Origin: Candidatus Omnitrophota bacterium
GTDB taxonomy: Bacteria > Omnitrophota > Gorgyraeia > Gygaellales > Profunditerraquicolaceae
NCBI GenBank assembly: GCA_025453445.1
Contig: JALOQJ010000001.1
Coordinates: 9,155-73,154 of the forward strand
Direction of reading: 5' to 3'
Length of the DNA stretch: 64,000 nt
How positions within the stretch are numbered: the stretch's first letter is position 1; each line of letters starts with the position of its first letter. Shown here piece after piece: positions 59,658 to 63,561 of this stretch. Both the position numbers and the translations under genes were made by a program. The notes below the pieces were generated by a model. That model worked only from the letters and a program-made list of their open reading frames with translations. It was not told the DNA's origin and did no database searches.

Positions 59658-59895
59658 CAGTTCCGCGTGTGTCTTGTCTGTATTTTTGCGGGAACGTTTG
59701 CCCCGCCCCAGCGTGGCGGGGCTGCACTTCGTTCCAGCCCCTCGCTCTCTCGCAGCCGGGCCCTGAATAAAATCGTTTTTAATAATTTGGAGCCGGCTGC
59801 TCGAACCGTGCCCGCTCGGGGCTTTCAAGATCCCGCAAAAACACAGCCAAGCCACCCGCTAAAACTCTCCTGCTCGCAACAGCCACTCGCTCAAA
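59658..59895. repeat. MITE-like GC-rich repeat, locus B (inverted relative to locus C), with internal subterminal inverted repeats
   Basis: The reverse complement aligns across about 180 bp with 63120-63300. TIR-like TGTCTGTATTTTTGCGGGA (59677-) and TCCCGCAAAAACACAG (-59851). Hairpin GCCCCGCC-N7-GGCGGGGC. Confidence 0.6.
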
Positions 59896-59930
59896 TGTAG
59901 TATATATTAATAAAGTAAGAAAAATAATAC

Positions 59931-59959
59931 TTGACGTACCTTTTTACATATGGTATACT
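59931..59959 (+). promoter_or_regulatory. Sigma70-type promoter of the antitoxin-toxin-GHKL operon
   Basis: TTGACG, 17 nt, TGgTATACT. SD AAGGGGGAA lies before ATG 59984. Confidence 0.55.
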
Positions 59960-59983
59960 TATTTTAGAAAGGGGGAAATAGAT

Positions 59984-60220
59984 ATGACGACGACAATTGT
60001 AACTACAAAAGGACAGATTGTGATACCCTCAAAGATCCGCCGAAGGCTCAATATCAAAAAAGGCACAAAATTATATATTGAGGAAAGAGGGGATGAGTTG
60101 ATTCTAAAGGCAGTTACTCCTGCTTATTTCGAGAAGATAGCAGGTGTTCTACAGACCAAAGGAAAATTATCCAAAGCGCTGGTTGAAGAGCGCACCAGGG
60201 AAAAAGAAAGAGAGGCTTAA
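59984..60220 (+). CDS. AbrB/MazE/SpoVT-family antitoxin (VapB-like)
   Basis: 78 aa; swapped-hairpin motif KGQIVIPSKIRRRLNIKKGTKLYIEERGDELILKA. Confidence 0.75.
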   Translation: MTTTIVTTKGQIVIPSKIRRRLNIKKGTKLYIEERGDELILKAVTPAYFEKIAGVLQTKGKLSKALVEERTREKEREA

Positions 60221-60223
60221 TCT

Positions 60224-60622
60224 ATGACAAGGATTATTGATGCTCATGGCCTCTTAGTTTTCTTGGAAAAAGAGGCTGGTTACGAAAAGGTGGAGCAATA
60301 TTTTATTTCTGCAACAGAGAAAGAGAAACAATTATTAATGGCTTCTGTGAATTTTGGAGAAGTATATTATATTGTCTTACGTGAATGTGGCCAAGAGAAA
60401 GCCCATGAAATAGAAAAAATAATCAGGACTTTACCTATCGCCATAGTTGATGTAGATATGCAGCTTGCTAGAGAAGCCGCTCGTTTTAAAGCCAGTCACA
60501 AAATATCATATGCTGACTGTTTTGCCGCCGCCTTAGCAAAGCTGCACAAAGGCGAAGTTATAACAGGAGATAAAGAGTTTAAAACAATAGAACAAGAGGT
60601 AAAAATCGCATGGATAGCCTAG
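60224..60622 (+). CDS. PIN-domain toxin (VapC-like)
   Basis: 132 aa with acidic residues in PIN positions: IIDAH, SYADCFAAALA, ITGDKEF. Confidence 0.75.
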   Translation: MTRIIDAHGLLVFLEKEAGYEKVEQYFISATEKEKQLLMASVNFGEVYYIVLRECGQEKAHEIEKIIRTLPIAIVDVDMQLAREAARFKASHKISYADCFAAALAKLHKGEVITGDKEFKTIEQEVKIAWIA

Positions 60623-62970
60623 AGCTTCTAACCGAATTGATAAAAGCAGAGGATGAAAAAGCAGTAGATAAAATAATCTCAAACCATTCTATTCTATCGA
60701 AAGATGAAAACTGGAAACCATACGGTGGCTTTAGAGGAAATTTTAGCCAGATTCACAATCAGCAAGGAAACGCAATTCCAGCCTTAGTTGAAAAGCCGAT
60801 AAATTCAATCGATGCATTATTGTTGAAACATTGCAAATTGAAAGGTATAGATCCTGAAAGTGACAGGGCCCCGAAATCCATTGACGAAGCGATAGAACAG
60901 TTTTACGGAATAAAAAAAGATTTATTATCGGAATTACCGGAAAGTAAACGAAGAGAAGTTGCCGAATCGATTCAAATCATAGCCACCGGAAGCAGGAATC
61001 AGCCGAATGTTTGTATATATGACGATGGAGAAGGACAACACCCCACAGATTTTGAAAATACATTTCTTTCATTGAATAAAGATAATAAATTGAAGATTAA
61101 ATTTGTTCAGGGTAAATACAATATGGGTAGTACTGGCGCCATCCCCAACTGTGGAGAGAAGAAATATCAACTTATCATCTCGCGCAAACATCCACAATTA
61201 CTTAACGGGAAAGAAGACATGTATGGGTTTGCTTTGGTTAGGCTTCACAAAGCTATAGGAGTAGATGTCTACAAAAATTCCTGGTACGAATATTGCGTTG
61301 ATAAGGATGGGAAAATTTTCTGTTTTATGACTAAAGAACTAGACGTCGGACTTTTTAAACGAAAATATATTTCAGGTACCTTTATAAAATTGTTTAATTA
61401 TGATTTACCTCGACCATCCGACATTACCCTAGACCTTTGGCGAGATTTAAATAGGTATTTATATGCTCCGGCATTACCCATTCTTCTATATGAAAAGAGA
61501 TTTGAAGAAAGGGGCAAGGGTAGAACGCCAACAAAACCTATGTTAGGGAATAGGATGAGGATAATGATTGATGATAGGGATTTAAAAGAGAAAACATTCT
61601 CTCTTTCTGTGAATACATCCGGCATTAAATCGTCAGGGGAAGTTACGGTTTTTAAGAATAATGTTGATAAGGGAGAATTTGTAGATAAATTAGCGGTTAT
61701 TTTCACAGTTAACGGTCAGGTGCACGATCATTTGACAAATGCATTTATAACCCATACTGCAAAACTACCCTATCTTAGCGGTTCTCTCTTGGTCAATTTT
61801 GATTGTTCAAGTATCCCGACTTCAATTAGAGAAGAGATTTTTATGGCTTCTCGGGACAGGATGAGAGATAACACTATTACAAGAAACTTGAAAGAAGAAA
61901 TCGCAAGGGAGTTAAGAGATAATGATTTTCTCCGACAACTAAACGAACGTCGTCGCGATGAAAAAATATTTCAGAACCCCAAAGATGACAATTTTATGAA
62001 ACGAGTGATGGGAAAGCTGTTAAATCAAAATGACGAAATCGCAAAAATATTAGGCTTGAAGGGCGATATCCGTGAAAGAATCAAGAAAATGTTAAAGACG
62101 GAGGTAAAAAATGGGGTATCGAGCTTTAAGGGGAGCCGGTACCCTTCTTACGTGAGGTTTAAGAATATAGGTGATGGGAATATAAAAATGATGCCCCAAA
62201 ATGGGGAATGCAAATTAGTTTTAGAGACCGATGTCGAAGATGAGTATCTTATAAGGTCAAATGATGCCGGGGAATTAAAAATTCAATTTTTGACTTCTGC
62301 TATTAGAGTTGGGGGCAGTTCTATTAAAAATCATGTTGCGCCAGATGTGGATATTTTTGATGTCAATGTGGTCGGGCCAAACCAAGGGGAGATAAAAATC
62401 CGTATAAAATCTAAGAAACAATTGCCTGTCGGTAGCGAAATTCCATTAGATATTACCATGACTTCCCCATCAGGCGATATTATTTTAAATGCAATTATAA
62501 AATTACTTAATCCAAATGAAGAAACTAAACAACACCAGATAGAAACAAAGGATTCTTATTCTTTACCTAAGTTAATTGAGGTGTACCGCGAGAAGAAAGA
62601 AGCCAATGTTAATGCTCCCTGCTGGACGGATCCAGATTACAACTGGACAGGTGATGATGTCTGCAAAATATTTCCATCGGGAGAAAAAGACCATTTAGTA
62701 GATGCTGTAGCAATAAATATGGATGCCTATGTTATACATGATTATATGCGACAAAAAAAATTAACAGATACGAATATCGAGCATCTAAAGAGACTCTTTA
62801 AGGTTTCTATTTACTTGATTTCCTTAATATTGTATTTTGAGTTATCTCAAAGAGAAGACGTAGAAGAAAAAGAAGAAATGGTATCTTTTTTGATGAAAGG
62901 CGTCGGCAAGATCGCCTTACAAATTGTCATTAATGATGAAATTTTAAAAGAAATAGATAAAGACGAATAA
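60610..62970 (+). CDS. Large uncharacterised GHKL (Bergerat-fold) ATPase domain protein
   Basis: 786 aa. N-box ALVEKPINSIDA (ExxxNxxDA). G1 box IYDDGEGQ. G2 box QGKYNMGSTGA. G3 box ISGTF. About 530 residues follow with no recognisable motif. The start overlaps the PIN gene by 13 nt. Confidence 0.65.
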   Translation: MDSLELLTELIKAEDEKAVDKIISNHSILSKDENWKPYGGFRGNFSQIHNQQGNAIPALVEKPINSIDALLLKHCKLKGIDPESDRAPKSIDEAIEQFYGIKKDLLSELPESKRREVAESIQIIATGSRNQPNVCIYDDGEGQHPTDFENTFLSLNKDNKLKIKFVQGKYNMGSTGAIPNCGEKKYQLIISRKHPQLLNGKEDMYGFALVRLHKAIGVDVYKNSWYEYCVDKDGKIFCFMTKELDVGLFKRKYISGTFIKLFNYDLPRPSDITLDLWRDLNRYLYAPALPILLYEKRFEERGKGRTPTKPMLGNRMRIMIDDRDLKEKTFSLSVNTSGIKSSGEVTVFKNNVDKGEFVDKLAVIFTVNGQVHDHLTNAFITHTAKLPYLSGSLLVNFDCSSIPTSIREEIFMASRDRMRDNTITRNLKEEIARELRDNDFLRQLNERRRDEKIFQNPKDDNFMKRVMGKLLNQNDEIAKILGLKGDIRERIKKMLKTEVKNGVSSFKGSRYPSYVRFKNIGDGNIKMMPQNGECKLVLETDVEDEYLIRSNDAGELKIQFLTSAIRVGGSSIKNHVAPDVDIFDVNVVGPNQGEIKIRIKSKKQLPVGSEIPLDITMTSPSGDIILNAIIKLLNPNEETKQHQIETKDSYSLPKLIEVYREKKEANVNAPCWTDPDYNWTGDDVCKIFPSGEKDHLVDAVAINMDAYVIHDYMRQKKLTDTNIEHLKRLFKVSIYLISLILYFELSQREDVEEKEEMVSFLMKGVGKIALQIVINDEILKEIDKDE

Positions 62971-62984
62971 ACTAGACGATTAAA

Positions 62985-63030
62985 ATAGGGGACGATTTAT
63001 TTTTCATATAAAACGTTCCCTATTTTGTTG
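62985..63030 (+). terminator. Rho-independent terminator; diverged copy d of the GGGGACG palindrome family with an expanded loop
   Basis: ATAGGGGACG-(19 nt AT-rich loop)-CGTTCCCTAT followed by TTTTGTTG. Confidence 0.5.
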
Positions 63031-63094
63031 TCGACTGTCGGAGCGGGTGACGAGGCGGAATTCACTATTTTCCTCTCTGTTGTTTAGTTTAGTG

Positions 63095-63330
63095 GCTGAC
63101 TTGGCCGGTTTCGAGCGCGGCTTCAAAAATCCCGAGCGGCCATGGTTCCCGCAGCCGGCTCCTTAATTGAAAAACGCTTTTATCCACAGCCCGGCTGCGG
63201 GAGAGCGAGGGGTTTTTGCAGAGCGATAAGCACCGCCACGGTGGGGCGGTGCAAGCGTCCGCGCGAGAAACGGGACAAGGCAGACGCGAAACAATTATGC
63301 CTCGGCAGGACCCGCCCCTGCTAAAAGCTA
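63095..63330. repeat. MITE-like GC-rich repeat, locus C
   Basis: Matches the reverse complement of locus B across CCCGAGCGG...GCAGCCGGCTCC...GCCCGGCTGCG.GAGAGCGAGGGG. Hairpin GCACCGCC-N7-GGCGGTGC. The R-module at 63247-63316 is about 85% identical to 4768-4832. Confidence 0.6.
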
Positions 63331-63336
63331 GACAAA

Positions 63337-63368
63337 CAAAAAAGGCGCTGATTTCTCAACGCCTTTCC
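63337..63368 (-). terminator. Terminator-like hairpin downstream of the minus-strand tRNA-like gene
   Basis: AAAGGCG/CGCCTTT stem. On the minus strand it is followed by TTTTTTGTTTG. Confidence 0.4.
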
Positions 63369-63486
63369 TCGTAGCATAAATCACCTTTCCGACAATAAAA
63401 GTATAACTGGAATAAACTTCTCTGTCAAGTAAAACTGATGGCGTAGTTAGCCTTTCCGACCCAGCCTAACTACGCCACCTTCATTA

Positions 63487-63561
63487 TCCCCTTGGCGGGA
63501 TTCGAACCCGCATCGCCCTTTTCGTCGGAAAGGTGCATTATCCATTTTATGCTACAAGGGG
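63487..63561 (-). tRNA. tRNA-like gene with an atypical anticodon loop (CCGACGA; nominal anticodon GAC, C at position 33)
   Basis: Good acceptor (CCCCUUG/CAAGGGG), D-arm (GCAU...AUGC) and T-arm (GCGGG-UUCGAAU-CCCGC). The anticodon stem CCUUU/AAAGG encloses a loop lacking U33. Confidence 0.55.

Follow-up and report, generated by a model that had tools for sequence, protein, structure and literature searches.

Close to the right-hand end of a 64,000-nucleotide (nt) stretch of a Candidatus Omnitrophota chromosome (contig JALOQJ010000001.1, positions 9,155 to 73,154 of the forward strand; hereafter the window, whose own numbering is used throughout), a self-contained operon occupies 59.9-63.04 kb. 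It consists of a promoter, the genes vapB and vapC of a toxin-antitoxin pair, the gene of a large GHKL ATPase and a hairpin terminator. We consider it somewhat better than an even bet (a probability of about 0.55) that this operon is a genetic-conflict or defence module. The joining of a MORC-like ATPase to a type II toxin-antitoxin pair is new, if not categorically so.

A VapBC pair and an ATPase gene share one operon

The first gene, vapB (59984-60220, plus strand), codes for an antitoxin of 78 amino acids (aa) with the AbrB/MazE (SpoVT-AbrB) fold (Pfam MazE_antitoxin, 3.4e-11; NCBIfam AbrB-family domain, 3.6e-13). It is followed after 3 nt by vapC (60224-60622, plus strand), whose 132-aa product is a PIN-domain toxin (Pfam PIN, 1.4e-16, above the cutoff). 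All four acidic residues, D6, E46, D98 and D116, can be read from the VapC translation. Judged by their sequences, vapB and vapC form a canonical type II pair of an AbrB-fold VapB and a PIN-domain VapC, with a toxin that looks competent. The likeness to type II VapBC systems lies in this arrangement, in which the gene of an AbrB-fold antitoxin immediately precedes that of a PIN toxin whose acidic residues are in place, as well as in a promoter of the autoregulated type and in the abundance of stand-alone paralogues and orthologues of the window pair. The difference is the third gene, which starts inside vapC and is apparently co-transcribed with it. The lineage of the window VapBC is among the most abundant toxin-antitoxin families of Omnitrophota metagenomes. 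It has a conserved promoter, TTGACATACCTTTTTnTATATGGTAyACT, and copies of the pair occupy many chromosomal sites.

The third gene (60610-62970, plus strand) encodes a protein of 786 aa, and its open reading frame (ORF) overlaps vapC by 13 nt. The last vapC codons contain its start codon, so that it looks like the distal gene of an operon served by the VapB/VapC promoter. This promoter is of the σ70 type, TTGACG-17-TATACT with an extended TG (59931-59959, plus strand), and the promoter and leader (59905-59988) are kept at 77-83% in other loci in which VapBC precedes the GHKL gene. A terminator-like hairpin, itself a self-inverted repeat, closes the operon (62975-63032, plus strand; RNA fold -28.6 kcal/mol, z -5.3) and is followed by the U-rich tract UUUUGUUGU. 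The layout suggests that vapB, vapC and the ATPase gene are transcribed together. An initial annotation, made from the letters of the window, had described a three-gene operon here, and its three ORFs were found exactly at the positions it gave; the σ70-type promoter and the gene overlap were confirmed as well.

The large protein resembles MORC and MutL clamp ATPases

The host is represented by a metagenome-assembled genome of Candidatus Omnitrophica, and the 786-aa protein is identical to P0001 (locus tag MUC39_00400). Its match to the Pfam HATPase_c_3 model, 20.4 bits, lies under the 25-bit cutoff, and 14 of 41 family members match this model. The motifs of a GHKL ATPase are nevertheless all in place: E61, N65 and D68 of the N-box (ExxxNxxD), D138, G140 and G142 of the G1 box (DxGxG) and G168 and G173 of the G2 box are invariant among 41 homologues, as are K309 of the transducer region and R317. 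An AlphaFold2 model of the protein (mean predicted local distance difference test score, pLDDT, of 78) places a Bergerat fold and an S5-type transducer in residues 1 to ~420, a helical linker in ~425-505, two Ig-like beta-sandwiches in ~510-635 and an alpha/beta region with a helical tail in ~650-786. Foldseek searches with this model matched the GHKL+S5 modules of Topo VI-B, Hsp90, ParE and MORC3. The fold match is strong; the predicted fold is closest to MORC3, SMCHD1 and MutL, and structural alignments of 264-300 residues cover both the ATPase and the transducer of these three proteins. The last ~135 residues have no recognisable relative. Sliding-window identity along the ATPase gene revealed no mosaic pattern.

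By its motifs and predicted fold, the 786-aa protein is a MORC/MutL-like clamp ATPase with intact ATP-binding motifs, and it looks competent. The invariance of the N-box, G1 and G2 residues, together with the strong fold match, bears out the complete Bergerat-fold ATPase that had been proposed from the translation. The initial annotation had not recognised the combination of VapB, VapC and GHKL as a described system. Pfam, NCBIfam, PADLOC and the PDB sequences all leave the large protein unnamed. No PDB sequence was matched in either single-sequence or profile searches, MORC chains included, and literature searches found no published description of the family.

A housekeeping GHKL enzyme (MutL, HtpG/Hsp90, the ATPase subunit of a topoisomerase or a sensor histidine kinase) in a core-metabolism operon would share much of this fold, which does resemble the ATPase modules of MutL, Hsp90 and the topoisomerases. 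We give this explanation almost no credence. No Pfam or NCBIfam model of MutL, HtpG/HSP90, the topoisomerase families or histidine kinases matches the protein, be it for the C-terminal dimerisation/endonuclease domain of MutL, the middle and C domains of HSP90 or HisKA/DHp, and its C-terminal half of Ig-like domains and helical tail resembles none of these enzymes. Furthermore, the gene is absent from the syntenic site of close relatives and is patchily distributed across phyla. These identities were rejected on such grounds; a housekeeping MutL, HtpG or histidine kinase was one of the outcomes that, according to the initial annotation, would refute its reading, and the protein is none of them.

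The ATPase family is widespread and has varied neighbours

The family to which the ATPase belongs yielded 2,866 matches in a collection clustered at 90% identity, all of them labelled "hypothetical", and 956 clusters at 50% identity (E<=1e-30). Five loci were retrieved in a metagenome scan for close relatives. The distribution is patchy and spans more than 15 phyla, among them Omnitrophota, Planctomycetota, Nitrospirota, Bacteroidota, Poribacteria and Patescibacteria, as well as archaea; family members are also present on plasmids of cultured Hymenobacter (locus L104) and Ensifer (L105). In viral collections the family was found in no phage record, and there were five weak IMG/VR matches. This near-absence speaks neither for nor against a role in defence.

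To describe the surroundings of the family, ORFs were called in 87 ATPase loci and the neighbours were clustered. The loci were divided by identity to the window ATPase into a distant branch (<=36%, 44 loci) and the window's own branch (>=37%, 36 loci). The usual upstream partner in the window's branch is a protein of ~70 aa with the motif ERFKRlAxxRTNxiLxxlrxLGNCSN (11 of 16 distinct loci). It is the commonest partner of the family and takes the slot that VapBC occupies in the window. In 18 loci, of which 16 are distinct (for example L013, 5729-5956; L037, 5773-5982; L044, 5762-5989), its gene precedes that of the ATPase by 2-45 nt. Its residues F13, A17, R20, L31, N36, Y40, Y42 and F74 are invariant, and the protein (C3) has no match in Pfam, NCBIfam or the PDB. 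Some of the closer ATPase relatives adjoin proteins with a YhcG PDDEXK nuclease domain (Pfam, 5e-60) or with a metallo-beta-lactamase fold, and MNT/HepT pairs and NYN, Fic and CHAT proteins are also found in their neighbourhoods. In the window itself, VapC is the sole nuclease-fold partner of the ATPase.

The distant branch has other company. SspB, SspC or SspD lies within 6 kb of the ATPase gene in 30 of its 44 loci (PADLOC SspD, 6e-100; SspB, 3e-96). In these Ssp-linked loci (L050-L087; for example L078, 5893-10217, L064, L104 and L105), the ATPase is 33-36% identical to that of the window. Genes for DndB (Pfam, 2e-31), GmrSD/SspE-like, SIR2 or DUF262 proteins or for kinases are often present, and the ATPase is often followed by a protein of ~170 aa and a DndB-like protein. 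The ~170-aa protein has GIY-YIG-like motifs that were read by eye only, and Pfam returned no match for it. As a restriction partner of orphan SspBCD systems, the module of Ssp-linked ATPase, ~170-aa GIY-YIG-like protein and DndB-like protein is an undescribed candidate; no such partner is known for 84% of sspBCD clusters, as reported in PMC8092258. The adjacency recalls the phosphorothioation-based defence of SspABCD with its restriction components SspE or SspFGH. The ATPase, however, has no Ssp match in PADLOC and is unrelated to any of these components: SspE is GmrSD-like, SspF carries a Walker A motif and SspH is FtsK-like (PMC8092258), and SspG is likewise unrelated. Identity of the ATPase with SspFGH or SspH was rejected, neither SspF nor SspH being a GHKL protein.

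A probable role in genetic conflict and the coupling of the operon's two halves

Prokaryotic proteins that combine GHKL and S5 domains, namely MORC and paraMORC, are found in restriction-modification and defence operons (PMC2292703; Iyer, Abhiman & Aravind 2008). The family of the window ATPase shares with them a sporadic, laterally mobile distribution. Association with nuclease and DNA-modification genes is strong in its distant branch (SspBCD, DndB, GmrSD-like) and is seen for some closer members (YhcG, metallo-beta-lactamase fold). In the predicted structure, the window ATPase also shares the succession of a GHKL domain and an S5-fold transducer with a conserved basic residue (K309). It differs from them in three respects. 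Searches of Pfam, NCBIfam, PADLOC and the PDB sequences assigned it to none of the MORC or paraMORC families that have been described; its C-terminal half, made up of the two Ig-like sandwiches and the helical tail, has no recognisable nuclease or TIR domain; and the partners are the ~70-aa protein, VapBC, YhcG or SspBCD/DndB rather than an SF2 helicase, a methylase and Vsr.

A precedent is provided by VcSduA (Shedu type I-D, paraMORC3), in which GHKL is fused to a DUF4263 domain of the PD-(D/E)xK type and both ATPase-dead and nuclease-dead mutants lose defence (PMC12137116). Here a GHKL ATPase controls a nuclease in phage defence, so an ATPase of this kind can be a defence regulator. In contrast to VcSduA, the window ATPase has no DUF4263 or PD-(D/E)xK domain, and any nuclease, the PIN protein in this case, would be a separate polypeptide. 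Because the DUF4263 domain is absent, identity with Shedu/paraMORC3 was rejected; PADLOC gave no SduA match either.

Given the MORC/paraMORC literature, the VcSduA precedent and the neighbourhoods of the family, the ATPase would most likely be an ATP-driven dimerising clamp on nucleic acid with a role in conflict (defence or restriction-like), in line with proposals on the MORC and paraMORC proteins of prokaryotes. The family may pair with interchangeable partners: the ~70-aa protein, a YhcG PD-(D/E)xK protein, a metallo-beta-lactamase-fold protein, or DndB and the GIY-YIG-like protein beside SspBCD. VapBC would then supply autoregulated low-level expression and stabilise the locus, and VapC could possibly be the toxic effector, a PIN RNase that is released on a trigger. 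The operon is thus a candidate anti-phage or anti-plasmid module, for which a role in defence or abortive infection appears plausible by analogy. A far more specific scheme can be drawn, which we regard as doubtful. According to it, the operon would be a tripartite abortive-infection or restriction-like system in which the MORC-like clamp senses invading nucleic acid and its ATP-dependent closure frees VapC from VapB; the wider family would serve defence as a modular sensor to which interchangeable nucleases are recruited, and the Ssp-linked branch, together with its DndB and GIY-YIG-like neighbours, would be a missing restriction partner of the many orphan SspBCD systems.

Should the family prove to be a defence component, the catalogue would gain a widespread module, with ~950 clusters in many bacterial phyla and archaea, and orphan SspBCD phosphorothioation systems would gain a candidate for their restriction half. 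In the VapBC-coupled version, the wiring of a toxin-antitoxin pair to an ATP-driven sensor could then be studied in a simple case.

How tightly the two halves are coupled bears directly on this reading. Eight distinct loci have VapBC in front of the ATPase gene, and the junctions are of three types. The first, the 13-nt overlap, is found in the window and in L093, L003, L010, L011 and L091, which represent two ATPase clades, and is kept even where the ATPases have diverged to 58% identity. The second, a 24-nt gap with a ribosome-binding site of its own, occurs in a locus of Planctomycetota (L023), whose ATPase is 41% identical. In the third (L008), a gap of ~115 nt separates the ATPase gene from an unrelated VapBC lineage (43% identity). 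In the last locus (~6025-8343; Ignavibacteriaceae, 71% identity) the ATPase reading frame is also interrupted by a stop at about codon 45, which points to a pseudogene or an assembly error. In a neighbour-joining tree of the ATPase, the VapBC-bearing loci are polyphyletic and interleaved with relatives free of VapBC.

A number of observations weigh against a defence module made of all three genes. The VapBC pair of the window's lineage stands alone, with the same promoter, at other sites in both long-contig examples that were checked (P0270 and P0262). Stand-alone VapBC loci are represented by L106-L111, and a promoter of the cassette type precedes the copies in L106 and L109. The stand-alone VapC of L109 even shares the C-terminus ..KIAWIT*, the very place in which the start codon of the window ATPase is embedded. 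Relatives of the ATPase, in turn, do without VapBC: one of 82% identity has no small partner upstream, and those of 74% and 69% have small upstream ORFs. Since VapBC is abundant alone and ATPase relatives lack it, the adjacency could be a matter of promoter capture or hitch-hiking, and the abundance of stand-alone VapBC weakens the case for an obligate three-gene system. Linkage to ssp genes was found in none of the 36 loci of the window's branch, and no ssp genes are present in the 64-kb window. In the window the cassette has core genes to its left and right, so it is not part of a defence island. Finally, the ATPase has no family match in PADLOC, NCBIfam or Pfam beyond the sub-threshold HATPase_c_3 hit; the Pfam and NCBIfam searches put names to VapB and VapC and left the ATPase without one.

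These data may be explained by two independent modules that are adjacent by chance, a selfish VapBC addiction module in front of a solitary MORC-like ATPase that captured a promoter and start and acts alone or with unlinked partners. We hold this to be possible, with rather low confidence. In its favour, the window VapC lineage is represented by over 120 clusters of 79-89% identity, for which the sources give the name VapC; a PIN gene adjoins the ATPase gene in 5 of 80 surveyed loci; the ATPase relative at 82% identity has no small upstream partner; and the ATPase start codon re-uses native 3' codons that are found in stand-alone vapC. Chance adjacency accounts poorly for three differing VapC-ATPase junctions in polyphyletic ATPase clades, one of them with an unrelated VapBC lineage, for the preservation of the 13-nt overlap, and for an operon that moves as a unit, being present in at least four chromosomal contexts. 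We conclude that the coupling of VapBC and the ATPase is recurrent but facultative. Swapping of VapBC between ATPase clades, suggested by identities of 78-90% for VapB/VapC vs 61% for the ATPase, was down-weighted: VapC proteins of this lineage form a cloud at ~80-89% whatever their context, so that VapC identity is uninformative on timing.

The operon was inserted between rarA and the DUF5981 gene

The left flank of the insertion is the core gene rarA (58334-59656, plus strand; Pfam MgsA_C/AAA; "replication-associated recombination protein A"). Homology of the window to its relatives L101-L103 extends through this gene. An empty site is seen in L102 (RarA 87% identical), in which pheS-pheT-rarA is followed by a 300-bp gap and then by the genes for DUF5981, NifU, 5FTHF ligase and RNase Y, and in which neither the cassette nor a tRNA gene is present. 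Homology of the window to L102 breaks at 59700 and restarts at 63642; L102 thus lacks the whole stretch of 59.70-63.64 kb, including the two repeats and the tRNA gene that are described below. In L103 (RarA 84%; same metagenome) the rarA-DUF5981 gap houses another toxin-antitoxin pair, a helix-turn-helix antitoxin with a Gp49/HigB-like toxin (HigBA-like; 8365-9020, minus strand). L101 (RarA 93%) is free of the cassette and rearranged past the repeat.

The presence of a different pair in L103 marks the rarA-DUF5981 gap as a hotspot of toxin-antitoxin insertion, a circumstance that also suits the explanation by two independent modules. If the two halves are indeed independent, the locus would be an ordinary accessory insertion in such a hotspot.

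The same operon is found at other chromosomal sites in other genomes. In L093 it follows V-ATPase genes and tRNA-Val/Asp, in L003 it follows recR/HAMP, and in L011 it is placed between tRNA-Lys and tRNA-Leu. The GC fraction of the cassette is 0.33-0.39 vs 0.42-0.48 in the flanks. From the empty site in L102, the other pair in L103, the low GC content of the cassette and the occurrence of the operon elsewhere it follows that the segment is accessory, was acquired horizontally and was inserted, in an Omnitrophota chromosome, between rarA and the DUF5981 gene. Horizontal acquisition had been claimed in the initial annotation and holds. Comparison of the syntenic locus downstream of rarA, which it had recommended, found the cassette absent from L101-L103, and the three genes are hence no ordinary core genes of this position.

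GC-rich repeats flank the operon but belong to the host

On either side of the operon lies a GC-rich repeat that can form a long hairpin. The left copy (59657-59862, plus strand, ~210 nt) appears to be a resident host element, and the right copy (63088-63292, minus strand) is inverted relative to it. Inverted copies of a repeat of ~200 bp had been reported here at ~80% identity; the copies exist, and their identity is 72% over 206 nt (E 3e-25). They had also been taken as a bracket resembling miniature inverted-repeat transposable elements and hence as a signature of mobility, a claim that the comparison with other loci does not sustain. L101, which is free of the cassette, has one repeat copy after rarA (8323-8530), 93% identical to the reverse complement of the right copy of the window. 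L102 retains the first ~40 nt of the repeat after rarA (8320-8357). Conversely, the repeats are absent beside the cassette in L093, L003 and L011, though the promoter and leader are kept there. Being present without the cassette and missing from the cassette elsewhere, the repeats are not its ends.

The repeat folds as an imperfect hairpin of ~210 nt, for which RNAalifold gave 73 pairs, 16 of them compensatory, from only two independent sequences. An end module of the repeat (~45-60 nt) lies directly 3' of the stop of a minus-strand ORF (ORF end 4890) at 4846-4889, is found in tandem at 4768-4829 and also follows immediately after the rarA stop. In all, the 64-kb window holds only two full and two partial copies. 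Rfam has no family for these repeats. From their sequence and placement, we read them as resident intergenic palindromic repeats of the lineage. The element may be a lineage-specific counterpart of repetitive extragenic palindromic sequences or an RNA element of 3' untranslated regions.

A tRNA gene and predicted antisense elements beside the operon

Within the variable segment, a tRNA gene lies on the minus strand at 63487-63561 (ARAGORN Val-GAC; Rfam 53.8 bits). The genome has a tRNA-Val(GAC) of its own at 47934, to which this gene is not related. The gene had been described as tRNA-like and defective. As can be seen from its folding, it forms a complete standard cloverleaf, with stems of 7/4/5/5 bp, U8, G18G19, a TUCGAAU T-loop and A73; what stands of the earlier description is an odd anticodon loop, CCGACGA, with C33 instead of U33 plus G37, and this is the sole clear anomaly. 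U33 is near-universal in tRNA anticodon loops.

Inverted partial copies of the tRNA, reported earlier, were found as well. The plus strand at 63366-63397 is one such copy. The segment in which it lies (63338-63428, minus strand) carries a promoter, TTGACA-17-TATACT (11/12), at 63428-63400 and a 14-bp hairpin with a U-run (63369-63338), and these elements predict an RNA of ~58 nt with a 5' part antisense to the neighbouring tRNA (nt ~4-40). Directly after the 3' end of the tRNA there is a strong hairpin (63439-63477, minus strand; RNA fold -27.2 kcal/mol, z -5.0), whose loop carries GUCGGAAAGG, complementary to the anticodon arm of the tRNA. Three copies of this 10-nt motif are present within 200 nt. 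A search of the tRNA-flanking region against Rfam retrieved nothing besides the tRNA. Many VapC toxins cleave tRNA anticodon loops. A connection of VapC with the C33 tRNA or with its antisense elements would be pure speculation.

It could be supposed that the segment is a composite mobile element bounded by the GC-rich inverted repeats or an integrative island targeted to the tRNA gene, and the initial annotation had indeed spoken of a tRNA hotspot. The inverted copies of ~206 nt on both sides of the operon and the lack of the entire 59.70-63.64 kb, repeats and tRNA included, in L102 are what one would expect of such an element. Ordinary tRNA genes are also located 150-500 nt from the cassette in L093 (2931-3146) and L011 (5033-5107, 8813-8897), with an integrase in neither. 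We nevertheless consider this explanation quite improbable. Besides the mismatch between repeats and cassette and the low number of repeat copies, no ORF of the window insert codes for a transposase or an integrase, and what is repeated of the tRNA is its 5' half in inverted orientation, not the 3' end in direct repeat. The tRNA was not found in the syntenic gaps of L101-L103 and has no match in the other loci or in viral contigs. Since it is missing from the empty site, it is no conserved integration landmark; this, the inverted 5' halves and the lack of an integrase argue against an integrase att site, and the tRNA hotspot has to be given up.

On the other side of the insertion, a 6S RNA (SsrS) gene was detected between pheT and rarA (58156-58315, plus strand; Rfam 61.9 bits against a gathering score of 46.4).

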